Shown here: positions 19,863 through 49,531 of the stretch, one piece after another | Numbering within the stretch: the stretch's first letter is position 1 | Layout of the letters: every line of letters begins with the position of its first letter | Source: Candidatus Woesearchaeota archaeon | GTDB taxonomy: Archaea > Nanobdellota > Nanobdellia > Woesearchaeales > UBA583 | Direction: 5' to 3' | DNA length: 64,000 nucleotides | NCBI GenBank assembly: GCA_965205335.1 | Contig: OZ242164.1 | Coordinates: forward strand, 800,001-864,000 | Translations under genes and position numbers: made by a program | Notes under the pieces: model-generated | What the model saw: the letters and a program-made list of their open reading frames with translations, nothing else | The model's database searches: none | Told to the model about the DNA's origin: nothing

Positions 19863-19876
19863 TATATAAATTTTGT
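19863..19876 (-). promoter_or_regulatory. BRE-TATA (ACAAAA-TTTATATA) of the FkbM gene, abutting the IS TSD
   Basis: TATA begins 33 nt before the ATG at 19837. Confidence 0.7.
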
Positions 19877-19884
19877 GAAAATTT

Positions 19885-20914
19885 GGCTCTGTCCGAAAAT
19901 TAATTTTTTTAAGGAAGAAGAGATGAAAACACTATTTGATACTAAAACATTATTATTTTTCTTTTGAAAATTATCCAATTTTCATAGAAGAAAATTACAT
20001 AAGAAAGTTTTTTTCTTATGTTATACCACAGAATATTCCATGCTATTTCTCTTTTTTTCATAAAATGTGTCCTACTTCTGATATTTAGTCCTTGAACTCT
20101 CTTCAGGGATGAAAACACACTCTCCACATTGTTCCTTTTATTGTATAATTCTTTATTTTTGTGATATTTTTGTTTGATTTTACAATGCTTAACGATATTA
20201 TGTTTAGTTTTTCCATAATTTTTTGGCGGGAAAATCAAATCTATATCTTTTTCTTTGAGATTTTCTAAATGATCAAAGGAAAAGTATCCTTTATCTGCGA
20301 CAAGGACACTTTTCCTGACTTTTAATCTTTTGAAAAGTTTGTTTGCAACTTTTGAATCATGCTGATTCTTAACCAAGAAAGAAAAGTCTATTATTTGTTT
20401 AGAGCCTTGCACATCACAAATTATGTCTAATTTATGCCAAGGAGATTTGGGTTCAAATCGTATTCTATGTTTGTAATAAGTAGTTTTATGGTCTGCATCA
20501 ATTCCCGAACCATCAATTGCTACAAGTTCTGGGTTGGAATTCTCTAAAGAAAATCTAATCAAATCTCGGATAAAAGAAACTGAGAAGGACTTTAACCAAT
20601 CATGGAGAGTTGATTTTCCTGGAATATGTTTTAGTTGCAACCAATGTTTCCAAGCAGTTAAAACGCCGTCTAAATTGCTTACGAACCTTCTAAGAGATTT
20701 TCCTGATTGGATATATAAGACTATTATAGCAACTCTTTGATAATTATTAAAGAGTTTGCAACCCCTCACAAAATTGTGAGGCCTTAACCTTAAACTATGA
20801 CAAAGTTTAAGTATTTCTTTATGTAAACTATTAGTAAAGTTGGTTGTCTTTAGCATAAAAAACTACCAACTTTACACTTTATTAATTCTTTGATTTGAAT
20901 TTTCGGACAGAGCC
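19885..20914 (-). mobile_element. IS5-family (ISH1/IS903-like) insertion sequence, 1030 bp
   Basis: Perfect 17-bp TIR GGCTCTGTCCGAAAATT; 8-bp TSD GAAAATTT at 19877-19884 and 20915-20922. Confidence 0.9.
19942..20856 (-). CDS. DDE transposase (IS5-type)
   Basis: AIDGSG, HDS, ADKGY, YNKRNNVESVFSSLKR (YREK-like). Confidence 0.92.
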   Translation of the reverse strand: MLKTTNFTNSLHKEILKLCHSLRLRPHNFVRGCKLFNNYQRVAIIVLYIQSGKSLRRFVSNLDGVLTAWKHWLQLKHIPGKSTLHDWLKSFSVSFIRDLIRFSLENSNPELVAIDGSGIDADHKTTYYKHRIRFEPKSPWHKLDIICDVQGSKQIIDFSFLVKNQHDSKVANKLFKRLKVRKSVLVADKGYFSFDHLENLKEKDIDLIFPPKNYGKTKHNIVKHCKIKQKYHKNKELYNKRNNVESVFSSLKRVQGLNIRSRTHFMKKREIAWNILWYNIRKKLSYVIFFYENWIIFKRKIIMF

Positions 20915-21033
20915 GAAAATTTACTGTTCATTTTATTGAGTAAGATTTATAAATATAAGAGAGAGTTATTTTTAATGCTTTTCTTAGACACCATTTCCAA
21001 AAGATTTGATTTAATTGAGTGAAATTTCAAAAA

Positions 21034-21795
21034 ATGAAAAAAAATAAAAGAATAGTAGTTACGGTAAGTGGATACTTTGACCCTCTTCATATAGGACATT
21101 TAGAATATTTGGAAAAAGCGAAGCAATTAGGGACTTATCTTGTTGTCATTTTAAACAATAATCACCAAGCAAGACTTAAAAAAGGTAAAGAATTTATGGA
21201 TGAATTAGAAAGAAAGAAGATATTGGAGTCAGTTATTTACGTTGATGAGGTATTTATAAGCATTGATAAAGACAGAACAGTATGCGAATCTCTAAGAGCA
21301 GTAAAACCACAAATTTTTGCAAACGGAGGAGACAGGAACAATCAGGAAATACCCGAAAGTGCTGTTTGCAGAGAATATGGGATTGAACTTGTAGATGGTC
21401 TCGGCACTAAAATCCAGTCATCTTCCAACCTTATAGGTTCTGCGAGATATTTGGAAATTGGAAATAGACCATGGGGTTCCTATTTTGTGCTTGAGCAGAG
21501 AGAAGGTTACAAAGTCAAGCGTTTACTTATTCATCCAAAGGGAAGACTATCCTTGCAGTCACACAAAAAAAGAGAAGAACATTGGGTAGTCACGAATGGA
21601 ACTGCAAAAATAACATTAGATGATAAAAAATTAGAATTAAAAAAAGGAGAAAGTATAACTATTCCAAAGCAATCAAAACATAGAATTGAAAACGAAGGAG
21701 ATTCTCTTCTTGAAATAATAGAAGTGCAGATAGGAGAGTATTTAGGAGAGGATGATATTACTCGTTATGAAGATTTTTACGGAAGAGTGAAATAA
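21034..21795 (+). CDS. Cytidylyl/adenylyltransferase fused to a type II phosphomannose-isomerase cupin
   Basis: GYFDPLHIGH, NGGDR, KIQSSS; then RPWGSY, LSLQSH, EHW, HRIEN, EVQIGEYLGEDDI. Confidence 0.85.
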   Translation: MKKNKRIVVTVSGYFDPLHIGHLEYLEKAKQLGTYLVVILNNNHQARLKKGKEFMDELERKKILESVIYVDEVFISIDKDRTVCESLRAVKPQIFANGGDRNNQEIPESAVCREYGIELVDGLGTKIQSSSNLIGSARYLEIGNRPWGSYFVLEQREGYKVKRLLIHPKGRLSLQSHKKREEHWVVTNGTAKITLDDKKLELKKGESITIPKQSKHRIENEGDSLLEIIEVQIGEYLGEDDITRYEDFYGRVK

Positions 21796-21925
21796 GTATT
21801 AATTACTAGGAGTTAAGATAGTTATTAATTACATAGAAAACTTAGATTAAATATGTATGATTTTTATATGACACACTTTCTTATAACAAAATTTATAAAC
21901 ATCTTAAAACTTGATTTCTATATAA

Positions 21926-24900
21926 ATGACTAAAAGCAATGTTTCAAAGAAAAAACTAACTTCTAATGAGAATGCTTCCAAAGTAGAATTTAGAACCATA
22001 AATACCAACATTCTCAAAAAATTACTACCTGTTATTTTAATCTTAGTAGTTATGAGTGTGGGATTTTTTGTAAGATCAGGACCAGTCAGTTTGGATGGAC
22101 TTGAAGAGAGAGTTGAAGCAAGTGTACACCTGCAAATTCAGAACATAATCAGTTCACAAATTGAAGCAAATTATCCGAACCTAAATGACATAAACAGGCA
22201 AGAATTAGTAAATAAGGAACTTCAAAAAGTAATTGAAACAGGCGATTTAAGTATAATTGGAGAAAGTGCAAATTTGAATGAAATTGTCAGAACTCAGAGC
22301 GAAAATATCAAAGAATTATTTAAAGCAGACAATGGGCAGACATACTTAAATGCAATTGATCCTTACTTTTTTTTAGGTTTAAGTGAAAATTACTTAGAAA
22401 ATGGACATACTGGAACATCACTTAAAAATATTAATGGAAAAGAGGTACCCTGGGTTGATCTCAGATTAGCTCCAGTAGGTGGTAGTGGAACTTATGAACC
22501 AGAGTTTCACATATGGCTTGAAAGTAATCTATTTAAATTAAGCGGAGTGGATGAAAACTCAGATATTGGAGAAAAAACCAGAGTTATTTTTCTACTTTCA
22601 GTAATTCTTGCAATTTTATGTTCAATCCCTGTGTTTTTAATTATAAGACAGTACTCAAATGATTTAATTGCATTTCTTGGTTCACTGCTCTTAGTTTCAA
22701 TAGGAACATTTGTATCAAGAACCATTGCTGGATTTGTAGATACGGACGCATATAATATCTTATTTCCTCTAATAATTGTTACTTTCTTAGTATATGCACT
22801 TGCTATAAAGGATTTCAGATGGAGAATATTTTTGGGATGTCTTGCTGGGCTTTCCCAAGCTATATTTTTATGGGCATGGGGAAGTGGTTGGTTTATATTT
22901 TTGTTCACATCAATTTCCTTGATTGGATACTTGATTTACCTAGTCATATTAGGATTTTTAGATGCAAAAGAATCTCCCAAAGCCAAAGATACAATGCATT
23001 TTAAAAGCATTATCACAAGAGAAAATCCAATTAATAATGTAGTAATCACATTAATTGGATTCTTAATTTCTTCTGCAATATTTAATTATCTAATAAATTC
23101 AGCGAACATTTTCAAATTAACATTCAATGGTTTGTTCGGATCTCTGTCAGGACTTGCATCAATTTCCCAATCCAATATCTGGCCAAATGTTTTCTCCTCA
23201 GTTGCAGAATTAAATCCCGCATCATTTGATTCAATAATTAGTTCTGTTGGAGGAAAAATCGTTTTTCTAATTGCAATGATGGGACTTGTAATGCTATCTA
23301 TTGATTTCAAATCCAAAACATCTAAACATATCATTGCAAGAAGAATCCTTTTACTATTTTCAGTTATATGGTTCTCCTTTATAATATGGGGTAACTTTTT
23401 AGAATCTTTTATCGCAAACACACCTTATATATTTTTAATATTATTAATGCTTCCAGTTGGAGTTGGGTTATTATTAAGTCTTCTTAACTCAAATAATTCA
23501 AATAAAATTTTCCTTACAATGTTACTATCAATTTGGGTTGCAGGAACAATCTTTATGAGTTTAAATGGAGTTAGATTTATCTTATTATTAGCCCCCACAT
23601 TTGCAATCTCATTTGCTATGGGACTTTATTATATTGCTACATATATTAATAAATTTATTGCAGGTGAAACAAGTATTAAAGGTAATTTGGGTAAGATTAT
23701 CCCTGGATATGTAATTATTTTAGTCATATTCTTAGTTATCTTTGTACCTATCTTTCAAAACGCTAATGCAATTTCAAAAGGAACAACCCCTAATTTTGAT
23801 GATGCATGGTATGGTGCAATGTACAAAGTAAGGGACAATTCAAGTGAAGATGCAATAATTACGTCTTGGTGGGATTTTGGACATTTCTTTGTAGCAATTG
23901 GTGAGAGAGGAGTTACATTTGATGGAGCATCACAAACAACCCCAAGATCTCATTGGGTTGGAAAATTACTTCTTGAATCAGATGAGCAGAAATCACATGA
24001 CATTTTAAGAATGCTTGTTTGTGGAGGAAATGAAGCCCATAATATTATGCTCAACATAACTAATGGTGATAATTCTGATGCGGTAAAAATAAATAAAATT
24101 ATCTATTCAACTCTTGGAGAGAATATTTCAAATACAAGAGTAATTATTGAAAACAATGAATATTATGATTTCACTCAAAGTCAGATTGATGAAATTATGA
24201 ATTTATTAGCATGTGATGTTCCTTCTCAAAACTTCCTTATCACATCTGGAGATATGGTTGGCAAGGCAGGAGTGTGGGCTCATTGGGGAAGTTGGGATTT
24301 TACAAAAAAATATGTTCATGACAATTACAAATTAAAATCAGCACAAGAAATTGCCAATTTAATTGATGAAGATTTAACTCTTATTGACAAACACATTAAT
24401 GAATTAAAAGATATAGACATAAGAGCAACCACAGAGAATATAAAAAGAGAAGACTTGACAAATCAATGGTTTGCTCCATATCCTTCATATATTCCGCTTT
24501 CTGGAAGATATACTTATCCTTGCTCATTTGATAACGGTTCTTTGGTTTGTCAAAATGGCATAGAGATAGATTCAATTACAGGAAATATAACATCCCAGTT
24601 TAATGAACAGGTTAAATTCAAGAACTTAATCTTTCCGCAAGCGGATGGAAATCTTAGAATTGTAGAGCAAGATTCAGATGGTGATATTGATATTGTCTTA
24701 GTTCCAAGCTATAATGGATTTGAAGCTTTATTAGCTCAGAATCCGTTGGGTTCATCTCTATTTACAAAATTATATTATCTTGATGGTTATGGAACAAATT
24801 TATTTGAAAAATTTGATGACAAGCAATCTGCAACAGGCGTTAGAATTAAAACATGGGAAACGTTATGGAATAAAACAGAAACAGAGGAGAATTTAAACGA

Positions 24901-25009: not shown

Positions 25010-25012
25010 TAT

Positions 25013-26365
25013 TTAAATCAATTCATTTAGAAAATCTAAAGTGATCTTTTCATATAGTTTCACATCCTCACTGGTTTTAGCCTCAAACCTTGTAGTTATC
25101 TTAGGAGAAGTATTAGACGCTCTGACAAGTCCCCAACCATTCTCGAACTCAACACGTGCTCCATCAATAGTTATTATATCCTTAATTCTAATTGGAAAAT
25201 TATTCTTAGCCTTTTCAATAAATGACTTAATCACTCCAAACTTTTTATTCTCTGCAATCTTAATTGTAATCTCCTCTGTTGAATGAACCTTAGGTATAAA
25301 CTCAAGTTCCTTCTTAAAATCAACTCCTTTATATACGAGTTCCAAAACTCTTAGAGTATTATAAAAACCATCATCATACCCAAAATACTTATCATTAAAA
25401 AACATATGCCCTGAAAGTTCAGTTGCAAAACTTGCATTAATTTCCTTAATTTTCATCTTCAAATTACTATGCCCTACCTTGCACATAACTGCTTTTCCAA
25501 TTTTATTAATCTCATCATACATAACATCTGAACACTTAACCTCTCCAATAACAGTTGGGTTATCCATATGCTTTGCAATAATTATCGCTAAAATATCGGG
25601 TTTAATTATAATCCCATCAATTAAAACATAGAACCTGTCACAATCCCCATCATATGCAAAACCTATATCAAAATCATCTTTCCTAAATTCCTCCTCAATG
25701 AACCTAAGATTCTCACGAACAAGAGGGTCAGGCTGGTGATTTGGAAATGTCCCATTCATCTCTTCAAATAAAATCTTAGCGTTTAAATTAAACATATCAG
25801 CCAAATTTCTTACATAAGGACCTCCCATTCCATTACCACAATCAAAAATCAATCTCTTATTCAGACCTTTCAAAAAACTAAACTCTTTCTCCAAAAACTC
25901 GATATACTTTAAATTAATATCTGACTCCATAAATTTATGATTATCCTGTATTTCCAAAGAACTGTTAATTACTTTCTTGCCTAACTCTTCAATATCCTTT
26001 CCAAAAAAAGGCTTATTATCAATTGTTATCTTAAATCCATTATCCTGAGGAGGATTATGAGATCCGGTAATCATGATAGATGAACCAATATTCACACCTT
26101 CATATTTCTGATACGTGGCATAATAAGCAGTTGGAGTTGCAACAAGTCCTAAATTAATAACTTTAAGCCCTGTCTTGTTTAAACCAGAAATAAGCCATTT
26201 AAACAATTGCTCAGAATGTGTTCTGCAGTCATATCCCACTGCAACAAGATTCCCCATTTTCTTAATCTCAAGCCCAGAATAATAACCAATATTCTTAACG
26301 GTTTTCTCATCCAAATCCGAAGGGAAAACTCCTCTTATATCATACTCTCTAAAAATATAACTCAT
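25013..26365 (-). CDS. Phosphomannomutase/phosphoglucomutase (AlgC-like)
   Basis: FREYDIRG, ITGSHNP, YDGDCDR, ELSGH, RASNT. Confidence 0.93.
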   Translation of the reverse strand: MSYIFREYDIRGVFPSDLDEKTVKNIGYYSGLEIKKMGNLVAVGYDCRTHSEQLFKWLISGLNKTGLKVINLGLVATPTAYYATYQKYEGVNIGSSIMITGSHNPPQDNGFKITIDNKPFFGKDIEELGKKVINSSLEIQDNHKFMESDINLKYIEFLEKEFSFLKGLNKRLIFDCGNGMGGPYVRNLADMFNLNAKILFEEMNGTFPNHQPDPLVRENLRFIEEEFRKDDFDIGFAYDGDCDRFYVLIDGIIIKPDILAIIIAKHMDNPTVIGEVKCSDVMYDEINKIGKAVMCKVGHSNLKMKIKEINASFATELSGHMFFNDKYFGYDDGFYNTLRVLELVYKGVDFKKELEFIPKVHSTEEITIKIAENKKFGVIKSFIEKAKNNFPIRIKDIITIDGARVEFENGWGLVRASNTSPKITTRFEAKTSEDVKLYEKITLDFLNELI

Positions 26366-27198
26366 TTTTGTTCCTTTTCTCTTAAATCATAAAAATAATT
26401 AGTTGCTTCAACAAACCCATGTATTGAGCCGCAATCAAATCTCTTCCCTTCTAACTTATATGCAACAACCTTTCCTTTCTTTGCCTGTTCTAAAATTGCA
26501 TCAGTTAATTGAACTTCTCCTTTTGAATCAGGTTTTGTGTTCTTTAGAATTTCAAAGATGTCAGGCGTTAAAATATACCTGCCAATAATTCCAAGATTTG
26601 ATGGAGCACCCTCAGGAGAAGGTTTCTCAACCATATTATCTACTTTTGTAATACCATTCCCAACAGATTTACCAGAAACAATTCCATACTTAGATATTTC
26701 ATCAAAGGGAACTTCTTCAACCAAAACAACACTGCACTTATATCTCTTGTAAACATTTATCATCTCTTTTAAAGTGCAGTGAGTATTGTCTTTTCCAATG
26801 CACACATCATCCGATAAAATCACAGCAAAAGGTTCGTTGCCAACGAGGGTTTCTCCTTTTAAAACAGCATCTCCTAAACCTAACATTTGGTTTTGTCTTG
26901 TATATGAGAAAGTGCACTCCTCAACAATCCTTTTAATACCCTCTAAAAGACATTCCTTTGATGAACCGTTTAACTGACTTTCAAGTTCATAATTATTATC
27001 AAAGTGGTCCTCAATTGCCCTCTTACCCCTACCAGTAACAATTGCAATCTGACGAATATTAGCACACATTGCCTCCTCAACTCCATACTGAATTAAGGGC
27101 TTGTCTACTAATGGGAGCATCTCTTTTGGCATAGCCTTTGTTGCAGGGAGAAAACGAGTTCCATACCCTGCAGCAGGAAATAAACATTTCTTAATCAT
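26362..27198 (-). CDS. galU: UTP-glucose-1-phosphate uridylyltransferase
   Basis: PAAGYGTRFLPATKAMPKEMLP, GLGDAV, VEKP, QLTDA. Confidence 0.95.
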   Translation of the reverse strand: MIKKCLFPAAGYGTRFLPATKAMPKEMLPLVDKPLIQYGVEEAMCANIRQIAIVTGRGKRAIEDHFDNNYELESQLNGSSKECLLEGIKRIVEECTFSYTRQNQMLGLGDAVLKGETLVGNEPFAVILSDDVCIGKDNTHCTLKEMINVYKRYKCSVVLVEEVPFDEISKYGIVSGKSVGNGITKVDNMVEKPSPEGAPSNLGIIGRYILTPDIFEILKNTKPDSKGEVQLTDAILEQAKKGKVVAYKLEGKRFDCGSIHGFVEATNYFYDLREKEQK

Positions 27199-27254
27199 TT
27201 TCTATCTTATGAAAACAAAAGATAAACTTTAATTTATAAATCTTTATGAATATT

Positions 27255-27290
27255 GGTTCTGTCCGGAAATTCAAATTTAAGAATTAATAA
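27255..27290 (+). mobile_element. Orphan IS end related to the transposase-upstream end of the IS at 19885-20914
   Basis: GGTTCTGTCCGGAAATTCAAATTTAAGAATTAATAA matches the reverse complement of 20879-20914 at 32/36. Confidence 0.8.
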
Positions 27291-27320
27291 CTTGAAACAA
27301 CAACTTTTAATTTTGAAACT

Positions 27321-27447
27321 TTTCCACATCATATACACTTGTAAACAAACCACAACGAATCATATCATTTTAGGTATTTTTTTGTTATTTCCACTGTATA
27401 CACTCATAAACAAACTATAACAAATTGTATCATTTTAGGAGTTTTTT
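27321..27447. repeat. Diverged ~60-bp tandem repeat (27321-27382 / 27388-27447)
   Basis: Both units read TTTCCAC..TATACACT..TAAACAAAC.A.AAC.AAT..TATCATTTTAGG..TTTTT. Confidence 0.75.
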
Positions 27448-27569
27448 CATCCTGAAATCAATTTTTGATATTTTCTCCCTTGATTATCTTTAGAATTTTG
27501 ATGTTTATAAAGATATTTATTTGTGGGTTCTGTTAAGTTTTAGTCACCTACCCAAAAACAACCAGAACC

Positions 27570-28581
27570 TTATTTCTTTACCCCCAAAAACTTTCTTTAC
27601 TACTCCCAAAAAAACTTATGTTTTAGGAATAACTAAAAAAGATTGTGATGAAGATGAATGCGAAAATTCTAAACAAGATTTTCCAGTATTTACTTATTTA
27701 GTTTTTAATATTGGTGAAACATTAGATGTTAATAGGTTTGAAATTCCTAAAAATGATTTAGATAATGCAAAGAACTTGTTTAATCAATTCAAAGGAAGCC
27801 CAAATAATTTTCAAACAGATGATCTGAGATGTAAATTACAATCTATTAAAAAGTTTGAAAATGAAAAATATTGGCTTATTGATAAATGGTGGAGTAAGGA
27901 AGAAAAAATTAAACTTGGCATTGAAAAAAAAGAGAATATTGTTTCTATTGAAGAATTTAAAGAGGAAATTCAAGTTCTTTCTCTAAAACTTGTAGAATGT
28001 AAATCTCTTTTAGATGAGATGAAAGTTGGTATTAACGATAAATACAAAACAAAATCTATTTCCATAATAGAAATTTTTGATACTGAAAAAGGAAATGCGA
28101 AATATACAAAAAATATATGTATAATCACAAAGGTAAATTTCCAGTTTATTCTTCTCAAACTTCAAATTTAGGGGAAATAGGAAGTATTGACACTTATGAT
28201 TATAATGAAGAATGTTTTACTTGGACAACAGACGGAACTTATGTTGGGAGAGTGTTTTATAGAAATAATAAATTCTCAATTACTACTCATTGTGGGATTT
28301 TGAGAGTTAAACCTGAATATAAGAATAAAGTTAATTTTGAGTATATGAATTTCATATTAAACCAAACACTCCCTAATTATAGATAGGGAGAGGGTTCTAA
28401 TAAGAGATTAGGGACTGAAAGAATGAAAGAAGTCCAAATTAAAATCCCAATAAATGAAAAAGGGGAGTTTGATTTGAATATGCAAAGAGAAATAGCAGAA
28501 AAATATAACAAAATTGAACAAATTAAAGAAAAATTAAATAAAAGTTATGAAAAAAATAATAAATTTAAATGTCAAGATATA
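27570..28581 (+). pseudogene. 3' remnant of a restriction-modification M-S fusion (N6-MTase tail plus HsdS-type TRD)
   Basis: ISLPPKTFFTT...YVL; FPVYSSQT, TWTTDGTYVG, IKIP...QREIAEK; frameshift near 28110, in-frame TAG at 28384, further frameshift near 28550. Confidence 0.75.
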
Positions 28582-28767
28582 AGCACCCGACACTTAACAA
28601 ATTAGAAAAAGCACCCTAATTTTGAACAGAACCGTATATAAAGATGAATTAAGTGTAAGAGTGCTTATTAGGATATTCAGAAAAGGTAGTGAGAAAAAAT
28701 TAAATATCAGTAGTTCTTTTAATACTTAGAGTTATCTTCTTTCAGATAATTTTATAAATTATCACTT

Positions 28768-28783
28768 CTTAGTAATTACTAAG
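28768..28783. promoter_or_regulatory. Perfect 16-bp palindrome CTTAGTAATTACTAAG, putative operator
   Basis: Lies between TATA TTTATAAA (28751-28758) and the Panacea gene start. Confidence 0.6.
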
Positions 28784-28826
28784 TGGTTAAACACTTTTAT
28801 ATTACTTTTTTAAGGTGTATGAAAAT

Positions 28827-29342
28827 ATGAACATGTCTTTCAATGAGGAAAAATTCAAATCTGTTTTACATTATATTATAAAAGAGACAAGTAATATTCA
28901 AAAAGTCTTCAAAACTTCATTATATAAAATGTTGTATTTTTCTGATTTTAACTTTTACGAGAAACATAATAAATTAATAACAGGTGAGATATATAAAAAA
29001 TTACCTCGTGGACCTGCCCCCATTCATTTTCAAAAAGTTATTGATGAATTAAAGAAAGAAAATAAAGTTAGGGAACTCAGAGTAACATTTCCCGATAATA
29101 AACAAGGACATAAATTCATATCCTTGATTGAACCTCATTATAATTTAACTTCTGAGGAAATAAACGAAATTGATAACACCATAAAATTATTGAGTTCAAT
29201 GTCTTCAACACAAGTAAGTGAATATTCTCATGGAGATACGCCTTGGAAAGTGGCTAAGGATAAAAATAATCTAGACCCTGAATATGTTTTTTATAGAATT
29301 CCCCTTTATTCTGCAAGAGAACAAGAAAATGAGAATATCTGA
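28827..29342 (+). CDS. Panacea (SocA/DUF4065) antitoxin-domain protein
   Basis: LYKMLYFSDF, ITGEIY, RGPAP, SEYSH..TPW. Confidence 0.85.
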   Translation: MNMSFNEEKFKSVLHYIIKETSNIQKVFKTSLYKMLYFSDFNFYEKHNKLITGEIYKKLPRGPAPIHFQKVIDELKKENKVRELRVTFPDNKQGHKFISLIEPHYNLTSEEINEIDNTIKLLSSMSSTQVSEYSHGDTPWKVAKDKNNLDPEYVFYRIPLYSAREQENENI

Positions 29343-29688
29343 AATTATTGAATTAGATGAGGCTAAAAAAGATTTAGAATTTCTCTCTAAGAAATATAAA
29401 CATTCTTTTAAAGATGATTACAAAAGATTTAAAACAATTGTTTTTAGTGATGAAGAATTTCAAGAGATTGAAAGAGTTTCCATTAAGCACGCTAATACAA
29501 GATGTAATAAGAAAACATTTTATAAATATAAAAAATTTAGATGTAGAGAGTTACAAAGTACTTCTTCATTTAGAGTTATATATTTTATAATTGACGGAAT
29601 ATTTTATTTAGTTGAAATATATTGTAAAAAACAAAAACAAAATGCTGATTATAAAAGGTTCAAGAAATATTGTGAATTATATAATTAA
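29329..29688 (+). CDS. Putative RelE-like toxin
   Basis: Overlaps the antitoxin stop; basic; AKKDLEFL.KKY, YKYKKFRC, FRVIY, VEIYCK pattern. Confidence 0.6.
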   Translation: MRISEIIELDEAKKDLEFLSKKYKHSFKDDYKRFKTIVFSDEEFQEIERVSIKHANTRCNKKTFYKYKKFRCRELQSTSSFRVIYFIIDGIFYLVEIYCKKQKQNADYKRFKKYCELYN

Positions 29689-29759
29689 CTCTCTCTCATC
29701 GCCATCTAAAAATTATGAAAAAATATCAGGTATCTAAAAATTAACAGAACCCATTAATC

Positions 29760-29773
29760 CAAATATTTATAAT
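29760..29773 (+). promoter_or_regulatory. BRE-TATA (CAAATA-TTTATAAT) of the citrate-lyase operon
   Basis: TATA begins 33 nt before the ATG at 29799. Confidence 0.65.
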
Positions 29774-29798
29774 ACATAAATGGCTTGATTTTTCAGAG

Positions 29799-31010
29799 AT
29801 GAACCTAAAAGAATTTGAGGGGAAATTAATTCTTAGAAAATATGGCCTGAATATTCCAAAAAGCACATTGATTTGTAAAGAAGATGCAATTCCAAAATTT
29901 AAAAAACCAGTCATTCTAAAAGCCCAGACATTTTCAGGAAAAAGAAAGGCTGGAGGAGGGATTATGATAGTTAAATCTCAAAAAGAAATGAGTGATGCAA
30001 TATCTGATATTTTCTCAAAAGAAATAAATGGTGAAAAAGTTTGCGAAATTCTGATTGAGGAATTAATTAATACGAAAAAGGAACTTTACCTAAGCATAAC
30101 TCTTGATACAAAAATTAGAAGACCTCTTCTTGTTATATGTTGTCAGGGTGGTTCAGATATTGAAGAATTAAAAGAGAATTCTCCCCAAAAAATTAAAACT
30201 CTGGAAATAAATGTTTTAGATGGAATTGATGAATCAAAATTAAGAGAATTAACTTCTGAATTGAATTTATCGGATGAAGAATTTGAGAACTTTTTTAATC
30301 TGACAATCAAACTATTTCAGATATACACAACAAGAGATTTAAAACTCCTTGAGATAAATCCATTAGCATTAACAAATAATGGATTCTATATATTAGATAC
30401 TAAAATAATCATTGATGATAATGGACTTTCAAGACAGGAATTTCCATTTGAGAGAACCACAGGTTACAGAAAAAGGACAAGTAGAGAAAAAGAAGCAAAT
30501 TTAATTGATGAAGATGATCATAAAGGAGTTTCAGGAAAAACATTTATTGATATGGATGGAGACATAGGAGTTATGGCGTCAGGAGGGGGAGCAAGCATTA
30601 TTGCAATGGACGCTTTAATTAGTTATGGGGCAAAGCCAGCAAATTATACTGAATATAGTGGAAATCCTCCTGCATATAAAGTTGAGAAATTAACAAAAAT
30701 TGTTTTGGATAAAGAGAATTTATCAGGATTATGGATAGTTGGAGGGATAGCAAATTTCACTGATATTTATGAAACACTTAAAGCGATAGTTGATGTATTA
30801 GTTGAGAAAAAAATTAATTTCCCCGTAGTTATAAGGCGTGGGGGGCCTAATGAGAAAGAGGCATTTGAATTAATACGAAAAACCGCAAAGAAACATAATT
30901 TGAATGTCTCAATTTATGGGCGTGAAACTCCTATTACTCTATGTGCTAAATATATGGCAGAAGCATCTAATAATTTTAAAAAGGAGGTTAATAATGGCAA
31001 TACTAATTGA
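29799..31010 (+). CDS. ATP-citrate lyase beta-type subunit (ATP-grasp plus citrate-binding domain)
   Basis: LKEFEGK, EINPL, GGGAS, ANYTEYSGNP, GGIANFT, RRGGPN are ACL-type rather than SucC-type signatures. Confidence 0.85.
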   Translation: MNLKEFEGKLILRKYGLNIPKSTLICKEDAIPKFKKPVILKAQTFSGKRKAGGGIMIVKSQKEMSDAISDIFSKEINGEKVCEILIEELINTKKELYLSITLDTKIRRPLLVICCQGGSDIEELKENSPQKIKTLEINVLDGIDESKLRELTSELNLSDEEFENFFNLTIKLFQIYTTRDLKLLEINPLALTNNGFYILDTKIIIDDNGLSRQEFPFERTTGYRKRTSREKEANLIDEDDHKGVSGKTFIDMDGDIGVMASGGGASIIAMDALISYGAKPANYTEYSGNPPAYKVEKLTKIVLDKENLSGLWIVGGIANFTDIYETLKAIVDVLVEKKINFPVVIRRGGPNEKEAFELIRKTAKKHNLNVSIYGRETPITLCAKYMAEASNNFKKEVNNGNTN

Positions 31011-31887: not shown

Positions 31888-31892
31888 ATTTT

Positions 31893-31991: not shown

Positions 31992-31998
31992 ATTTAAT

Positions 31999-34196: not shown

Positions 34197-35393
34197 ATGC
34201 CATATAAATATGAGAACGTATATGAATTTGAAGAGGACTCAAAACTCATGTTAAACTGTTCTTTGCGTGAAATTGAAAAAATAAAAAAGAGTAATTTGAA
34301 AATCTGCGAAGTTGGTGTTGGCAGTGGTTTTGTTATTTCAAACATTGCAAAAAAATATTCAAAAAATCATTATTTTGGATGTGATATAAATTCTTACGCA
34401 GTTAATCTAACAAAAGAAGAATCATCAAAAACAGAAGTTAAATTTGAAATATTAGCATCAGATTTGCTTTCAGATTTTAATCAGAGATTTGATATGATTT
34501 TATTTAATGCTCCTTATCTGCCGTTTGAAAATAAAAATGATTCTTTTCAAAATATCTCAATTAAAGATAGGGCAATTTATGGAGGAAAAAAAGGATATGA
34601 AATTGCTTTAAGATTAATATATCAGATAAACGATAAACTAAACAATGAAGGAATCTGTTTAATTATTATAAGTTCTCAAACTAATTTAGATTACATTAAA
34701 GAAAGAATTGAAGAGAATTTTTTTGAGTGTAAATTATTAGAAAATAAAGATTCTTTCTTTGAGAAAATCCATTGCATAAAAATTACCAAATCAGAAATTT
34801 TGAAAGAACTAACAGACAAAGGCATTACACAGATCAAATACTTAGATTGTGGAAAACATTCAAAGGTCTTAGAAGGAGTTTACAGTAAAAATCCAGTAAT
34901 AATTAAAATTGGAAAATCACAGCACATTCAAAAAGAAATCGCCTTTGAGAAGAAACTTCAACAGGAATCCTTTGTTCCAAAGATGTTTCTTTATGAAGAT
35001 AATTTTATTGTTTGTGAAAAAATTGAAGGAGAATTAATCGTTGATTTTTTTGAGAACTGCAAGAGCAAAGAACTTCTAATTAAAATTCTAAATAAAATAT
35101 TAGATGCAACAATAAGACTTGATGAATTTGGAATTAATAAATTTGAAATGATTAATCCATACAAGCATATTTATATTTTAGACAGCGAAGAGATTAAATT
35201 CATTGATTTTGAGAGATGCATTTATACAGACAAACCAAAAAACACAACTCAGGTTCTTGAATTTTTCAGAAGACATTCCAAACAACTTTCAAGAAACAAA
35301 ATAAAAATTGATGAAAATAAAATATTCAGTATTTCAAAAAAATATAAAAAAAAGAATTTCAGGTTTGGAATAGAAGATGTTTTATGTGAATGA
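34197..35393 (+). CDS. HemK2/Mtq2-like methyltransferase fused to a RIO/Ser-Thr kinase-like domain
   Basis: VYEFEEDS, EVGVGSG, FNAPY, GGKKG; then GKHSKV, IIK, IDFER; ATG 34197 preferred over 33951. Confidence 0.8.
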   Translation: MPYKYENVYEFEEDSKLMLNCSLREIEKIKKSNLKICEVGVGSGFVISNIAKKYSKNHYFGCDINSYAVNLTKEESSKTEVKFEILASDLLSDFNQRFDMILFNAPYLPFENKNDSFQNISIKDRAIYGGKKGYEIALRLIYQINDKLNNEGICLIIISSQTNLDYIKERIEENFFECKLLENKDSFFEKIHCIKITKSEILKELTDKGITQIKYLDCGKHSKVLEGVYSKNPVIIKIGKSQHIQKEIAFEKKLQQESFVPKMFLYEDNFIVCEKIEGELIVDFFENCKSKELLIKILNKILDATIRLDEFGINKFEMINPYKHIYILDSEEIKFIDFERCIYTDKPKNTTQVLEFFRRHSKQLSRNKIKIDENKIFSISKKYKKKNFRFGIEDVLCE

Positions 35394-35430
35394 GGATTAT
35401 ATCTTTAAATTTGCATTTAGTTTGAGACAG

Positions 35431-35547
35431 GGCTTTGTACGAAAAGTAACAATTGCTTTAAAAAAGATTAAAACATTATATTATATATTGATAATTTTAA
35501 TTATTTCTAATTTATTATTAATTCTTAATGACTTTTCGTACAAAGCC
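35431..35547. mobile_element. 117-bp MITE, copy 1 (IS903/IS5-like ends)
   Basis: 17-bp TIR GGCTTTGTACGAAAAGT; 9-bp TSD TTGAGACAG. Confidence 0.95.
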
Positions 35548-35594
35548 TTGAGACAGAAAAAGTTTATAAAAACAAGTACACTTATCACATTACT

Positions 35595-37328: not shown

Positions 37329-37473
37329 AATTTCTAAAGATAAACTAAATAATCATAGTAATCAAAACAGAATAATTTCAAGTTTGGAATAGAGGAGGTT
37401 TTGTGTTAATGATAATTATTTCTTTAAATTTATTTTTAGTTATGGGAGTAAATATTTCACATATGAGAGAACA

Positions 37474-37590
37474 GGCTTTGTACGAAAAGTAACAATTGCT
37501 TTAAAAAAGATTAAAACATTATATTATATATTGATAATTTTAATTATTTCTAATTTATTATTAATTCTTAATGACTTTTCGTACAAAGCC
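37474..37590. mobile_element. 117-bp MITE, copy 2 (identical to copy 1)
   Basis: Same TIRs; different 9-bp TSD GAGAGAACA. Confidence 0.95.
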
Positions 37591-37760
37591 GAGAGAACAT
37601 AAACTTTTATAAAGTTTGGTTCTAGTGTAAATTCAGTTGGAGATAATTATTAATATTATGTGGGTAGTTTTAAAAAGAATAAAGGTATTAATAAATTATG
37701 AATTGGTTGTATCATAAAAATAAATTAACAAAAAATTTCTATCACAAAACATAAAAAAAG

Positions 37761-39571: not shown

Positions 39572-39671
39572 AAATGTATGGTATTTTTCGCATTAATCTC
39601 TGTAATTTTTCCATACAATTCACCTAATCATTTTATATAAATTTATAAAGATTTAAATTTTAATGTTCATT

Positions 39672-41939: not shown

Positions 41940-41962
41940 TATATTGTATGTATCTCATGCTT

Positions 41963-44839: not shown

Positions 44840-44955
44840 ACTTTCAAATTCTCACATAGGTTTTATAAATTTACTGAAAAATACTTATAAAAAAATATTA
44901 TAACTATATCAAATAAAATAAAAAATTTAGAGCCGAAACAACATAACAATCAATC

Positions 44956-45426: not shown

Positions 45427-45428
45427 TT

Positions 45429-46235
45429 TTAATCAGAATCCTCAACCTTATGAATCTCTATATCTCCAAGGTGCTCTTTTTGTTTTAAATAAACTTTGTT
45501 TTGATTATGCAGGTGTAAAAGAGGCATGAAAACCTCTAATAACTCAATTTTACTCCTTGCATTTTTTGAAATATGCCCAAATGTAACATGTCCTTTCTTA
45601 GATTTCCACTCACAAACAATTAAATCATGAAGTTCAGAAATTATTGTTTTTAAATCTTTTTTCTTCTTCTCAAAAATAGGTCCATCATATTCCCATTCAT
45701 GATTCTTGTAAAAAAAATTCTCACGACGTCTATTACTTTGCTTAAAAGTATTCTCTAATAACTTAACCAAGTCAAAAATATTAACCTTTCTCTTTCGGGC
45801 GATTGGATTTCTCACCTTAATTGCATACCTTTCTTTTCTCTTAAAATCAGAAATATCCTCTAAATGATTATCTATTTCTTCAAGAGATTCAATCTCCTCC
45901 ATAGAATCATCACTTCTCTGAGCCTGTGCAATCTGTTCCACAATTCCTCTCAAATCCTGCTCCACTAAATTTTCCGCCTTAGTCTTAAGCAAGAATACTG
46001 CAATTGTTAAGAACTTACCAGAAGAGTCAAAATCAACTTTTTTCAGATTTCTCATAACTTCAAGATACTTCTGAGTTAAAACCCCCAAATCAATATCCCA
46101 AGGGTTAAGATTTTCATCGTGAATTAACTGATACAAAAAACTCTTCCAATTAATTTCATTCTTATCATTTGCAACCTTTAAAATTCTCTCTTCTGGTCTT
46201 ATATAATCAGCAGTCTCACCATGTTGAATATCCAT
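45429..46235 (-). CDS. scpA: Segregation/condensation protein A (kleisin)
   Basis: LNPWDIDL..LT.KYL, LLKTKAE.L, FMPLLHL, Q...GDIEI. Confidence 0.85.
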   Translation of the reverse strand: MDIQHGETADYIRPEERILKVANDKNEINWKSFLYQLIHDENLNPWDIDLGVLTQKYLEVMRNLKKVDFDSSGKFLTIAVFLLKTKAENLVEQDLRGIVEQIAQAQRSDDSMEEIESLEEIDNHLEDISDFKRKERYAIKVRNPIARKRKVNIFDLVKLLENTFKQSNRRRENFFYKNHEWEYDGPIFEKKKKDLKTIISELHDLIVCEWKSKKGHVTFGHISKNARSKIELLEVFMPLLHLHNQNKVYLKQKEHLGDIEIHKVEDSD

Positions 46236-46337
46236 ATATTTCCCAATCAAAATCCTAATTTATAAATCTCTGTATTCTTTATCAAGTAGCATAAACTGAA
46301 ACAATACTAAGACTAACTATAAAACGAAAACATACAA

Positions 46338-47531
46338 CTATTTCCCTGAAATTATCTCAATAACATCACCAAACTCTAAAACATGTTCCTTCCCAACTGA
46401 CATCTTTGTTTTAATATTATTTGCCCGAATAAAATTCTTACCAAAGTCTGTATGCAACCTGAAAGCAAAATCAAGAGCGGTTGCATTACTCTCCATTAAA
46501 AAACAATCAGGCAGGACATTTCCATTCTTATCCTCAAGTTTAACGCCCCCAGGGAAAATAAGTTTCATTTTAAGCAAATCAAACACAGCAGAATTTAATG
46601 CCTCCTGAACTCCTGTTGTTTTCATAACATCTAATGCCTTTCTTATTTTATCTAAACCTGCAATTTGTATATCACTTAACCCAGAACTATCTACAATTTC
46701 AAAACCTGAATCCCCAGGAACATACATTAAAATATTAGAATCATGACCCTTTCTCAAATTAAACTCATACTCTGCCATAACTGGAATAATATTATACATT
46801 GGAAACTGTTCTCTTAACTTATTTAACTTAGTCTCCCACAAATTATTTTCCAAAAGAACATCGCATTTATTTGCTGCAATAATCATTGGCTTTGAAACCT
46901 CTCTAAGTTTCTTGGCAAGTTCAAACAAATTATCAGAAATACTAACCTTATCAAGACTTAACTCATTTACAGCCCAAAGGATCTGCCTCTCTGAAATCTT
47001 AAGCCCTGATAAAACAGAACCTAAAGCAATCTCAATTTTCATATCCTGCATTTTAACCTTCTTTTCAATATTTTCCCAGTGTTTTGAAATAATATTAAAA
47101 TACCAGTGATTTAACTCATCCTCTAAAAACTCAATATCATTTGCAGGATTATATGAATTAATCTCAACAATTTCCCCTTTATCATTTGTTGCTCCAGACA
47201 AATCAATCACATGAATTAGAGAATCTGCCTGCCTTAAATCATCTAAAAACTTATTTCCAAGTCCTCTACCTTCATGTGCCTTCGGAACAAGCCCTGCAAC
47301 ATCAATTATTTCAACAGGAACAAACCTGTAATCCCCTATCACATACCCCTCTCTTGGATTTGAATGCTTATTAAAATCAAGGGCCGGATCTCTTACCTTA
47401 ACATATCCCATTGCAAAATTAGGTTCAATCGTTGTAAAAGGGAAATTTCCTGAAGGAGCATTTGCAAGAGTTAAACTTCTAAAAAAAGCAGACTTCCCAA
47501 CATTTGGCTTACCAACAATCCCTATAATCAT
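46338..47531 (-). CDS. ychF: YchF/Ola1 family GTPase/ATPase
   Basis: GKPNVGKS, FPFTTIEPN, DVAGLV, GLGNKFLDD, NKCD, TGS domain. Confidence 0.93.
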   Translation of the reverse strand: MIIGIVGKPNVGKSAFFRSLTLANAPSGNFPFTTIEPNFAMGYVKVRDPALDFNKHSNPREGYVIGDYRFVPVEIIDVAGLVPKAHEGRGLGNKFLDDLRQADSLIHVIDLSGATNDKGEIVEINSYNPANDIEFLEDELNHWYFNIISKHWENIEKKVKMQDMKIEIALGSVLSGLKISERQILWAVNELSLDKVSISDNLFELAKKLREVSKPMIIAANKCDVLLENNLWETKLNKLREQFPMYNIIPVMAEYEFNLRKGHDSNILMYVPGDSGFEIVDSSGLSDIQIAGLDKIRKALDVMKTTGVQEALNSAVFDLLKMKLIFPGGVKLEDKNGNVLPDCFLMESNATALDFAFRLHTDFGKNFIRANNIKTKMSVGKEHVLEFGDVIEIISGK

Positions 47532-47609
47532 AAAATAACATCACGCATATTTGTTTAAAAATATTTACATTTCCCCAAATTATTTAAACAAATAAATTAT
47601 AACATACAT

Positions 47610-47957
47610 ATGGGTGAATTAAAACAGGTAATCTTAGTCAGAACAGATATAAAGATGTCAAAAGGAAAAACAGCAGTTCAGGTAGCTCACGCATCAGTTG
47701 AAGCAGTATTTAACACAAACAAAAAATTAGTCTCAAACTGGCGAAAAGAAGGAATGAAAAAAATAACTCTAAAAGTTGATTCATTAGAAGAACTAAAAAA
47801 ATTTGAGAAACAAGCAACTGATAACAATTTACCCACTGCTTTAATTACAGATGCAGGACATACTGAATTACCTCCCAAAACAATAACTGCTCTTGCAATA
47901 GGTCCTGCTCCAAGCATTAAAATAGATAAAATAACGCAAGATTTACCAAACCTTTAA
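47610..47957 (+). CDS. pth2: Peptidyl-tRNA hydrolase Pth2
   Basis: KQVILVRTD, GKTAVQVAHA, DAGHTE, AIGP. Confidence 0.95.
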   Translation: MGELKQVILVRTDIKMSKGKTAVQVAHASVEAVFNTNKKLVSNWRKEGMKKITLKVDSLEELKKFEKQATDNNLPTALITDAGHTELPPKTITALAIGPAPSIKIDKITQDLPNL

Positions 47958-48050
47958 ATTCCATCACTTACTTCATTTAGACTAAGCCTTCCTAATTCCC
48001 TTATACTCTAAAACTATACACAAATGCTACAAAACCTAAGATAATACTTA

Positions 48051-48446
48051 TTACTTCCCTTTTACCTGAGCTAAGATTCCATCATTTCTTCTAAAAAACA
48101 AACCGAACATAATCATAAAAGATATTAAAGATACTATAAAAATAGACACCCTAATCATACTCTGCAAATAATTCTGATTATCATGTCTTGCATCAAGTGC
48201 TTTCTCATATGAATCTCTCAAATTAGGATCATCAACACCATATATATTCTTATCACTTAAACTGGCATTAACATACTTCAACTCATCACTCCAGACATTA
48301 TCCTCAACTGCTATAATATAATAAGATATCTCTTCGTCAAATGCAGATAACATAAGACTAAACAGGAAAAGAAACAAAATCAAAATAAAACCCACTACAA
48401 CTAAGACATTATTCCTTTTTCTTATATTTCCTACTCCCTTCACCAT
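48051..48446 (-). CDS. Hypothetical 2-TM protein
   Basis: Two hydrophobic helices; TATA TTTATATA at 48482-48475. Confidence 0.6.
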   Translation of the reverse strand: MVKGVGNIRKRNNVLVVVGFILILFLFLFSLMLSAFDEEISYYIIAVEDNVWSDELKYVNASLSDKNIYGVDDPNLRDSYEKALDARHDNQNYLQSMIRVSIFIVSLISFMIMFGLFFRRNDGILAQVKGK

Positions 48447-48502
48447 TGTGATTAAACATATTTTGCAAAGCCACTATATAAATATTTGGATTATCTGTGA
48501 AT

Positions 48503-49444
48503 TGTGTAGTGCAGTGACATATGTCACCACCTCAACTTTCTCTGAAAGTTGTCAAACTCATAAGAAGGAGTTTGACCAAATAAGCCCTCATGAGGCCTAA
48601 AAGCATTGTATCTATATCTAAATAACTCTAAATCATTGTTGCAATACTTAATTTCTCTGTCAATTGTTCCAAACAAACGTTCCACTTTTCCATTTGTTTG
48701 AGGACGGTTAACTCTAGTTCTAATGTGCTTAATCCCTCTTCTTTGACGCCATTTATCAAACTTAGACTTCTTACTTGTGAGTCCATATGGTGCTCCATTG
48801 TCACTGATTATTTGATTAGGATTTCCAAATTTCTTGATTAAATTATCAAGAAACTGTGTTACAATTGGCGTTGTAACAGTTGGAACGTGTAAAATACCTA
48901 AACAATAACGAATGGCATCATCAATGACTGCAATTATTTTACCTTTTTCCCCAAATTCACTGTCATCAATATGCCAAAGTGAATTTGAGTGTTTACGTTC
49001 GAAACGAACGTATTTAACCTGAGACCCTCTATTTCCTTCTTTACGAGTTAAATTATTCTCTCTAAGAACTTTATTAATGGTTCTCTCTGAAATATCCAGA
49101 TTAGGTAGGATTTTATGAAGCTTTTTAGATCCCCAACCAGTTTTATATCGAAGATTTAAAATTGCTTTCTCATCTTCTAAAGTAACTTTGTAATAGATCT
49201 TGTTTGGTCTTGTAGACTTATCTTGATAATCCCATATTTCTTTATCAAAACGTTGTTGCCAACGTTTTAAAGTACGAATACTTACAAAGTATTTGCACTT
49301 CTCAGCAAGTATTTTCTTGCATTTAGAATAAGAGTTTTGTTTAACTCTTAGTTTTATGAAAACTTTCCTAATTTCGTATTTTTTCATAAAATTAACAAGA
49401 ATTGTTAATTTTTAGACTGGTGACATATGTCACTGCACTACACA
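48503..49444 (-). mobile_element. IS481-family insertion sequence, 942 bp
   Basis: Perfect 27-bp TIR TGTGTAGTGCAGTGACATATGTCACCA; 14-bp TSD GATTATCTGTGAAT at 48489-48502 and 49445-49458. Confidence 0.92.
48524..49387 (-). CDS. IS481 rve-type DDE transposase
   Basis: WHIDD, IDDAIR, SDNG, PQTNGKVER, YN..RPH; stop codon lies inside the TIR. Confidence 0.92.
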   Translation of the reverse strand: MKKYEIRKVFIKLRVKQNSYSKCKKILAEKCKYFVSIRTLKRWQQRFDKEIWDYQDKSTRPNKIYYKVTLEDEKAILNLRYKTGWGSKKLHKILPNLDISERTINKVLRENNLTRKEGNRGSQVKYVRFERKHSNSLWHIDDSEFGEKGKIIAVIDDAIRYCLGILHVPTVTTPIVTQFLDNLIKKFGNPNQIISDNGAPYGLTSKKSKFDKWRQRRGIKHIRTRVNRPQTNGKVERLFGTIDREIKYCNNDLELFRYRYNAFRPHEGLFGQTPSYEFDNFQRKLRW

Positions 49445-49531
49445 GATTATCTGTGAATAATACAGACAAATAAAACCTTAAAACAACATTTCAAAACCAA
49501 ACTTTATAAATAAATTACTCCCTGCTAAGTT

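Follow-up and report, generated by a model that had tools for sequence, protein, structure and literature searches.

The window analysed here, a 64,000-nucleotide stretch of the genome of a Candidatus Woesearchaeota archaeon (contig OZ242164.1, positions 800001-864000), contains DNA transposons and short elements related to them that have inserted at a fixed distance upstream of archaeal core promoters, and the same spacing recurs throughout the genome. Insertion is targeted relative to the core promoter, consisting of the B recognition element (BRE) and the TATA box, a conclusion that we hold with very high confidence. The elements concerned are an insertion sequence (IS) of IS5 type, the MITEs (miniature inverted-repeat transposable elements) and cargo cassettes associated with it, and an IS of IS481 type. 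The initial annotation of the window had described four insertions, each consisting of a target-site duplication (TSD; 8, 9, 9 and 14 bp), a 6-bp spacer and a TATA box, together with three orphan element ends at 27255, 27526 and 29751. All four insertions were recovered in place with perfect TSDs, and each of the three ends lies 14 nt from a TATA-like octamer.

The genome is a single contig of 1,199,749 bp (31% GC) with an archaeal small-subunit (SSU) rRNA, one gene for the TATA-binding protein (TBP) and one for transcription factor B (TFB). Open reading frames (ORFs) were called by length (1001 of at least 90 aa, first ATG, overlaps resolved), a crude procedure by which 83% of the genome is coding. 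The octamer TTTATAAA occurs 411 times in total, and relative to the ATG of long ORFs it starts at -29 (51 cases) or -30 (41 cases) with a tail to -34, while no case at -26 to -28 was found for any of the 1001 ORFs of the whole genome. A peak 29-30 nt before the ATG is the geometry of archaeal leaderless mRNAs, and TTTATAAA is therefore the TATA box of leaderless genes. Octamers with at most one mismatch to TTTATAAA were accepted as boxes, those matching TTTAWAWA being counted as strict. With this definition 367 ORFs have a box at -28 to -36, of which 324 are without a nearby element and are referred to as free promoters; aligned on the box they display a BRE with A at -3 in 85% (274/324), A-rich positions -4 and -5, and T at -7 in only 3%. 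As TTTATAAA is palindromic, the side of the box on which an element has inserted is informative.

The genome was scanned for the tip motifs of the terminal inverted repeats (TIRs), read outwards, a procedure that misses highly diverged copies and admits a few chance matches. Tips of the form GGC.CTGT.C, shared by the 1030-bp IS and a MITE of 127-129 bp, gave 89 ends, and at 45 of these a box lies exactly 14 nt away (strict in 34). The tips GGCTTTGT.C of the 117-bp MITE and its 1664-bp parent have a box at 15 nt in 9 of 26 ends, and the IS481-like tips have one at 20 nt in 8 of 33. Box counts at any other tip distance never exceed 5. For the tips GGTTCTGTT, carried by cargo cassettes, the box lies at 14 nt in 5/26 ends, while 5 more lie 8-9 nt from a later IS5-type tip. 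Since only one of the two ends of an element faces the promoter, about half of the ends is the expected ceiling. Over all intergenic positions in both directions, a box is encountered at any given distance in 0.30% of cases (strict) or 0.70% (at most one mismatch), so that the binomial tails are 4e-72 (45/89), 1e-14 (9/26) and 8e-10 (8/33), with 9e-62 also computed for strict boxes. This intergenic null rules out chance spacing, and the spacing first read from the window reappears genome-wide as peaks at 14, 15 and 20 nt over a background of 0.3-0.7% rather than as a flat distribution.

Insertions with intact TSDs place the landmark to the nucleotide. In 30 of 32 such IS5-type insertions the box begins exactly 6 bp past the TSD (23 boxes are perfect), and 22 of these 30 boxes precede an ORF of at least 50 aa whose first base is 24-49 nt from the start of the box. 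Genome positions 502957 and 665497 depart from the rule, and at the latter the TSD is shared with the MITE next to it, on the other side of a cassette. In that region (genome 664537-665624) two 128-bp MITEs with the 8-bp TSD GTGTTCAA flank a GGTTCTG cassette having the same TSD, and the second MITE is boxless; the arrangement may be a composite or a recombination product. Nine IS481-like copies retain both ends, and five of them have a box at 20 nt, made up of TSD plus spacer as 14+6, 15+5, 15+5 and 13+7 and, in one copy, without a TSD; the remaining four comprise one with a box at 18 nt, one stacked behind a MITE in the 20-nt register and two without a box. The proposal that the spacer is always exactly 6 bp thus holds for the IS5 types, whereas in the IS481-like elements the spacer varies from 5 to 7 bp and the constant is the 20 nt from tip to TATA, usually laid out as a 15-bp TSD and a 5-bp spacer, the 14+6 layout of the window copy being in the minority. 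For the 14-, 15- and 20-nt registers, respectively, the proximal cut lies 6, 6 and 5-7 bp from the box, the centre of the TSD at about 10.5, 11 and 13 bp, and the distal cut at 14, 15 and 20 bp.

The elements always lie on the upstream, BRE side of the box. The BRE hallmark, A at -3, is present at 42/44 IS5-type sites, 9/9 sites of the 117-bp MITE type and 8/8 IS481-like sites, compared with the 274/324 free promoters, T occurs at -7 in 2 of the 44 unique IS5-type sites, and the six to seven bases that separate the TSD from the box have the same BRE as free promoters. After Bonferroni correction (34 tests, 44 IS5-type sites) no difference from free promoters was seen anywhere from -14 to +19. 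An element is found at its characteristic distance from 47 of 318 non-coding TTTATAAA octamers (~15%) but from only 1 of 93 intragenic ones. Promoters that have been hit include those of thymidylate kinase, RtcB, aspartyl-tRNA synthetase, aIF2-gamma and ribosomal proteins S2 and L15-type, as well as those of an M17 aminopeptidase and an ATP-citrate-lyase-like protein; with housekeeping genes among the targets, insertion is tolerated in front of essential genes. One box without an ORF precedes what we take by eye, from a conserved motif, to be an RNase P RNA-like gene. None of the 32 tRNAs found in the genome with aragorn lies within 400 nt of the eight ORF-less boxes.

Several simpler origins of the spacing were considered and set aside. 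Segmental duplication of an element together with its flank is ruled out by flanks that are unique in 32/32 and 44/45 cases, and a constraint of space by the non-coding DNA that continues past the TSD for another 95 nt in the median, a figure that depends on crude ORF calls and includes room that may hold other elements. A symmetric second half-site was looked for as well; three elements (genome 47345, 147223 and 460577) are flanked on each side by a box at 14 nt, but they have no TSD, and we infer that these are recombinants between copies.

Where elements are stacked, the order of insertion can be read. At genome 34049 an older GGTTCTG cassette supplies all 9 bp of the TSD of a MITE, namely its own 8-bp TSD and its terminal G, and at genome 462833-463910 an IS481-like copy has its TSD at -20 to -7 while a later MITE (TSD -14 to -7) lies between it and the box. 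These stacks imply that distance from the box fixes the register irrespective of the local sequence, and that the youngest element is nearest the box.

Element families and related genomes

The 1030-bp IS is present in three copies of 99.9-100% identity, together with older copies, and encodes a 304-aa protein with the Pfam domain DDE_Tnp_1 (PF01609, 8.9e-22). NCBIfam model NF033579 (IS5 family) is the best model for all five of the proteins tried, with 109 bits for the 1030-bp IS, 132 and 81 bits for others (all below the 140-bit cut-off) and 145 bits for the relative L019, the only one above it. The 942-bp IS encodes a 287-aa protein with a helix-turn-helix (HTH) and an rve domain (PF00665 1.2e-10, rve_3 3.1e-09, HTH_32 1.3e-04), for which NF033577 (IS481 family) is best (1.7e-53, 182 bits, cut-off 224), IS3 following with 62 bits. 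As their best models are those of IS5 and IS481 while the scores stay under the curated cut-offs, the two transposases appear to be divergent members of these families. TSDs of 8-9 bp are typical of IS5 subgroups and TSDs of up to ~15 bp of IS481 in ISfinder, and the IS481 group is related to retroviral and long-terminal-repeat (LTR) integrases. The elements here had been taken for unrelated transposons; this is correct for the two superfamilies (DDE_Tnp_1/IS5 and rve/IS481) but not within the first, where the IS5-type IS and the MITEs share TIRs and have an IS5-family parent.

The IS5-type elements have TIRs and fixed TSDs, of 8 bp in 26 intact cases and 9 bp in 6. The MITEs are short and non-coding, with TIRs and TSDs; the 117-bp form exists in six copies of 99-100% identity and the 127-129-bp form in about 30, and their TIRs are identical over 17 nt to those of IS5-type elements. 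The parent of the 117-bp MITE is a 1664-bp element (genome 589112-590775) with a DDE_Tnp_1 protein (PF01609 1.9e-24) and a small SWIM-finger ORF. Relative to the promoter, MITE orientation is random (11 vs 8). The cassettes with GGTTCTGTT TIRs hold cargo and no transposase (MORN-repeat proteins, an aspartyl protease and unassigned ORFs) and look like mobile insertion cassettes moved in trans; further examples lie at genome 664673-665488, 1044577-1045492 and near 1195789. The word CGAAAAT within the IS5-type TIR (positions 10-16, for example window 19894-19900) matches the BRE consensus, probably by coincidence, as it is not conserved in the TIRs of TATA-targeting relatives of the same genus. 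An IS6-type transposase (DDE_Tnp_IS240, 237 aa; L113) is encoded at genome 15841-16554.

The spacing extends to relatives of these elements in other genomes of the genus and order, which are kin rather than independent samples and are named here by record titles, some of which look wrong for their kinship. Transposases 22-48% identical are present in 12 of 40 related genomes searched, besides that of the window. The nearest relatives of the IS5-type transposase belong to records titled Candidatus Woesearchaeota, Nanoarchaeales or Nanoarchaeota, which makes a DPANN-type archaeon the probable host. The spacing was read only where ends could be delimited, TIR and TSD detection having failed for most of the distant relatives (Thermoplasmata, Acidobacteriota and others). 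The layout is a 9-bp TSD, 6 bp and TTTATAAA in L005; an 8-bp TSD, 6 bp and TTTTTAAA in L017; a 9-bp TSD, 6 bp and TTTTTAAA in L019 (TIR GGCTAATATG); and a TSD matching at 9/9, 6 bp and TTTAAAAA in L092, a locus of 52% GC. The box is 14 nt from the tip in L006, L007 and L008 and 15 nt in L014 and L039. In L038, from a record titled Halobacteria (TSD 8/8), there is no box at 14 nt, and none is shown beside copies L021, L023 and L055. A search of five related genomes with exact 10-nt tips returned 18 matches in four of them, with a box at 14 nt in seven and at 15 nt in one; several of the other matches are far ends of the same elements or apparent chance matches in genes.

Among IS481-type relatives, L119 (72% identical) has a 15-bp TSD, 5 bp and TTTATATA, L120 (69%) has a 15-bp TSD and only a box recognised by eye with 2 mismatches, and L122 (63%) has no box. 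Three IS481-like elements of the same genus that are 35-37% identical (L124, L130 and L134) have no box at 8-30 nt (0/3, or 0/4 when a copy without a TSD is counted), and their TSDs of 12-15 bp are clean or nearly so (15/15 in two, 11/12 in one). As these same-genus elements are without a box at that distance, targeting is, in the sequences compared, a property of particular transposase lineages and not of the host genome or of survival alone. Comparison with these three elements offers a natural way to find out what determines targeting.

Recognition of the promoter

In the mechanism that we propose, IS5-family transposases would mobilise the full IS, the 127-129-bp MITE, the 117-bp MITE and the cargo cassettes, and the unrelated IS481-family (rve) transposase would likewise mobilise its own IS. 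The promoter-proximal staggered cut falls 5-7 bp (exactly 6 in the IS5 types) before the TATA octamer, where the BRE has its upstream border, and the distal cut 8, 9 or 13-15 bp further out; on the bound, bent promoter the stop would be provided by the edge of TFB that lies upstream on the BRE. Duplication of the target leaves the native promoter to -14, -15 or -20 from the box, so that the promoter would stay intact and functional and the site would be a safe haven, open to repeat insertion, from which stacks with the youngest element next to the box would result. That the landmark is the promoter occupied by TBP and TFB, recognised by contact and/or through the TBP-induced bend, and not the bare sequence, is in our estimate an evenly balanced proposition. 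It is suggested by a one-sided landmark of 15 bp for transpososomes that are normally two-fold symmetric, by the shared proximal cut and by the involvement of two unrelated enzymes; that the proximal cut is nearly common although TSDs measure 8, 9 and 13-15 bp fits a model in which the edge of a bound complex is read. The fuller proposal, that in Woesearchaeota-like (DPANN) archaea minimal transposases from two unrelated superfamilies bind to the complex of promoter, TBP and TFB and measure from its upstream edge, is more tentative, and we rate it slightly short of even; it would make these elements the first host-factor-guided, promoter-directed system in archaea and a prokaryotic counterpart of Ty3 and TFIIIB.

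Several observations weigh against a bound complex as the landmark, and most of them bear on the alternative of direct DNA read-out, in which each transposase would itself read naked DNA at some 7-14 bp from its cut, on one side only, and recognise there the sequence of the BRE and TATA box or the shape and flexibility of this stretch (A-tract plus TTTATAAA). Footprints of TBP and TFB reach ~12 bp upstream of the box, so that the proximal cut may lie beneath bound TFB. Targeted boxes are stricter than those of free promoters, with a perfect TTTATAAA in 30/44 vs 126/324 (p = 3e-4) and the element-proximal TTT intact in 44/44 vs 250/324 (p = 3e-5), which fits direct base read-out, although high TBP occupancy could give the same result. 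Both transposases (304 and 287 aa) are small, and Pfam found no domain in either beyond the HTH and the catalytic core. Sequence-specific target choice is common among IS families, and the landmark is within reach of the target-DNA contacts made by known transpososomes. The polarity towards the BRE and the depletion within genes can arise by selection after targeting by sequence only; on this account insertions on the downstream side and at intragenic boxes would occur and then be removed, in keeping with the near absence of elements at intragenic TTTATAAA (1/93). Transcription starts, moreover, were deduced from ORFs called crudely by length. Direct read-out, with this corollary, is the main rival, a possibility that we take seriously, if a somewhat doubtful one. 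Against it, symmetric transposase dimers do not usually read a motif on one side only, and recognition of the same 15 bp would need to have evolved in two unrelated enzymes, with the same proximal register by coincidence. Significant bias is confined to positions within the logo of the promoter itself, and none of 61 scored sites resembles a downstream-side insertion (A at -3 in 59/61).

Selection acting on random insertions, with only those copies surviving that spare genes and promoters in a compact genome, would draw support from the coding density (83% by the crude call), which would make most random insertions lethal, and from the compatibility of all surviving positions with promoter function. 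It is nevertheless very improbable as the sole cause. Because the TSD is duplicated, promoter integrity constrains the distal cut only, for which any place upstream of the BRE would do. The positions are nevertheless exact to a single nucleotide (45/89 at 14 nt) in spite of the 95-nt median room beyond the TSD; each family keeps its own register, and the same-genus IS481-like copies discussed above have TSDs and no TATA at 8-30 nt. The initial annotation had argued that selection alone would not fix the distance, and on these grounds we concur. The idea that the box is part of the mobile unit, as an outward-facing promoter, or that the pattern is an artefact of assembly or composition, we consider negligible in probability. 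TATA-like words are frequent at 31% GC, as the 411 occurrences of TTTATAAA illustrate, but the TSD lies between element and box, no two sites have the same TSD and spacer (32 unique flank pairs), conserved 14-nt linkers from element to box are not seen, the boxes are at -29/-30 of unrelated host genes, and independent contigs span the junctions and reveal an allele without the stack described below. As a negative control, which does not bear on distribution, a metagenome scan with a 17-nt TIR word found at least 80 loci, nearly all of them chance matches in unrelated DNA of higher GC, and a box at 14 nt in 1 of 78 usable ends, alongside the random intergenic rate of 0.7%.

Insertion sites in the window

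The IS5-family IS occupies 19885-20914 (minus strand), with a perfect 17-bp TIR (GGCTCTGTCCGAAAATT) and its transposase ORF at 19942-20856 (minus strand). Its target (19863-19884, minus strand) comprises the TSD GAAAATTT at 19877-19884, repeated at 20915-20922, the spacer ACAAAA (19871-19876) and the TATA box TTTATATA (19870-19863), which drives an FkbM-type methyltransferase gene (19076-19837, minus strand) with its ATG 33 nt after the TATA start. The first 117-bp MITE (35431-35547, plus strand; TIR GGCTTTGTACGAAAAGT) is flanked by the TSD TTGAGACAG at 35422-35430 and 35548-35556, and its target site (35422-35570, plus strand) continues through the spacer AAAAAG to TTTATAAA at 35563-35570, which drives a periplasmic-binding-protein gene from 35595. 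The second copy (37474-37590, site 37465-37613, plus strand) has the TSD GAGAGAACA, the spacer TAAACT and TTTATAAA at 37606-37613, and no ORF of at least 50 aa was found behind this box. The far flanks of the two MITEs (35358-35421 and 37377-37440) share ~70 nt of homology, with a 26-nt core matched twice where 0 matches are expected by chance, and represent either a duplicated gene tail or another small repeat. The IS481-family IS (48503-49444, minus strand, 942 bp) has a 26-bp TIR (TGTGTAGTGCAGTGACATATGTCACC) and its transposase ORF at 48524-49387 (minus strand); the target (48475-48502, minus strand) consists of a 14-bp TSD at 48489-48502, repeated at 49445-49458, the spacer CAAATA (48488-48483) and the TATA box TTTATATA (48482-48475), and the ORF behind it (48051-48446, minus strand) starts 36 nt after the box start.

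The three orphan ends belong to a 2.5-kb stack of elements (27255-29753) between two divergent promoters, each boundary being 14 nt from a box. Between 27254 and 29754 the sequence includes a cassette, a SocA/Panacea pair of genes and the end of a truncated IS5-type element. On the galU side (27233-27290, plus strand) TTTATAAA at 27233-27240 is followed after 14 nt by the truncated IS5-type end, beginning GGTTCTGTCCGGAAATTC at 27255 and 88.9% identical over 36 nt to the IS end (BLAST); the box faces a galU-like NTP_transferase gene (26362-27198, minus strand; Pfam 1.6e-31). Next in the stack (27504-28634, plus strand), TTTATAAA at 27504-27511 stands 14 nt from a cassette with GGTTCTGTT TIRs (27526-28634), which carries a 216-aa ORF without an assignment and in which neither a recognisable transposase nor a matching TSD was found. 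On the citrate-lyase side (29743-29773, plus strand) a cassette end terminating in AACAGAACC at 29751 is followed after 14 nt by TTTATAAT (29766-29773), which drives the ATP-citrate-lyase-like gene (29799-31010; Pfam ATP-grasp_2 and Citrate_bind), with the ATG 33 nt after the box start. These ends had been grouped as one GGTTCTG type, which has to be divided into the truncated IS5-type end at 27255 and the GGTTCTGTT-TIR cassettes. Within the stack, at 28815-29688, a SocA/Panacea-domain ORF (175 aa) overlaps a 134-aa ORF without a Pfam match, likely as a toxin-antitoxin-type pair.

An allele without the stack is present in contigs of two public sequencing runs, where only 33-34 other letters separate 27254 from 29754. 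The support consists of one contig in run X2 (depth 2.1) and one in run X4 (depth 3.2, 92 letters on the shorter side), and one of the two comes from the probable source sample and the other from another sample with 90-95% similar sequence. The public-run contigs, which cannot show absence, revealed no empty site where the two MITEs or the IS at 19885 have inserted. Run X3 contains a joint at 27447/27331 that goes back 117 nt, hinting at variation in copy number of a unit of ~117 nt; Tandem Repeats Finder reported no repeat in window 27200-27560. Rfam and tRNA scans of the window gave no matches. Elsewhere in the genome a paralogous family has 12 members, all of them very long and repetitive ORFs (up to 5179 aa), located at genome 280118-403594 and at other positions.

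Comparison with known systems

In domain content and in their TIR and TSD architecture the elements are like ordinary IS5 and IS481 insertion sequences and MITEs. The target preferences known from these families concern short words within the TSD itself, such as YTAR or TNA in groups of IS5, and we know of no IS5 or IS481 member with an offset promoter landmark. The initial annotation was aware of no archaeal precedent, and our search of the full-text literature, with subscription journals and supplements outside its reach, likewise returned no report of TATA- or BRE-directed transposition in archaea or of promoter-directed transposition by IS5 or IS481 elements. In a 2026 survey of archaeal IS (PMC13343696) a term search finds the words TATA, promoter and target site absent, and an earlier paper only speculates that archaeal ISH6, which duplicates the AT-rich AANATNTT, might favour promoter regions (PMC3942029).

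The closest bacterial parallel is described in that paper, according to which the Mutator-like DDE elements TnGBS, ISLre2 and ISKra4 take the -35 box of sigma-A promoters as their landmark and insert 15-17 bp upstream of it (PMC3942029). The two systems share a fixed distance upstream of a core promoter that is left intact and the participation of more than one transposase lineage, and those members of the bacterial group that have near-perfect inverted repeats insert either way, as do the MITEs here (11 vs 8). The differences are that the bacterial elements are Mutator-like and use the -35/-10 promoter of sigma-A, whereas the present ones are archaeal, use BRE/TATA, belong to IS5 and IS481 and cut closer (5-7 bp). 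As Pfam finds DDE_Tnp_1 and rve in the two transposases and no Mutator-type domain in either, the present elements are functional analogues, not members, of the TnGBS group.

Among eukaryotic systems, Ty3 integrates 2-3 bp upstream of RNA polymerase III (Pol III) start sites through contact of its integrase with TFIIIB, which comprises TBP and the TFIIB-like Brf1 (PMC8632968). The likeness lies in an rve-fold enzyme, nucleotide precision relative to a TATA-type element and a safe haven in a gene-dense genome; Ty3 differs as a retroelement with a C-terminal domain and a chromodomain 'ruler' that inserts downstream of TFIIIB at the start site, whereas the present elements are DNA transposons, have minimal transposases, lie on the upstream (BRE) side and would contact TBP and TFB. 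The Ty3 intasome, held by TBP and Brf1, shows that docking on a complex of the TBP/TFIIB type exists (PMC8632968). Dictyostelium TRE5-A and other retroelements that target tRNA genes in compact genomes share the convergent use of safe sites near a promoter complex and differ in being eukaryotic, Pol III-specific and RNA-mediated (PMC6101501, PMC5006619).

Fixed-distance, promoter-directed transposition is thus on record for a small number of Mutator-like elements in bacteria and for Pol III-directed retroelements in eukaryotes. For practical purposes, MITE junctions can be used to annotate promoters in uncultured archaea, and a transposase of this kind could deliver cargo to a defined, non-disruptive site upstream of archaeal genes. 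If the landmark is TBP-TFB, these elements would provide a simple two-factor system for the reading of a pre-initiation complex by a transposase and an independent parallel to Ty3 and TFIIIB, and if docking is true, the element stacks would record the order of insertion at each promoter. Even if the read-out is purely of DNA, the pattern shows how mobile elements persist in symbiont-type genomes of 1 Mb that are 83% coding, the promoters of essential translation genes included.

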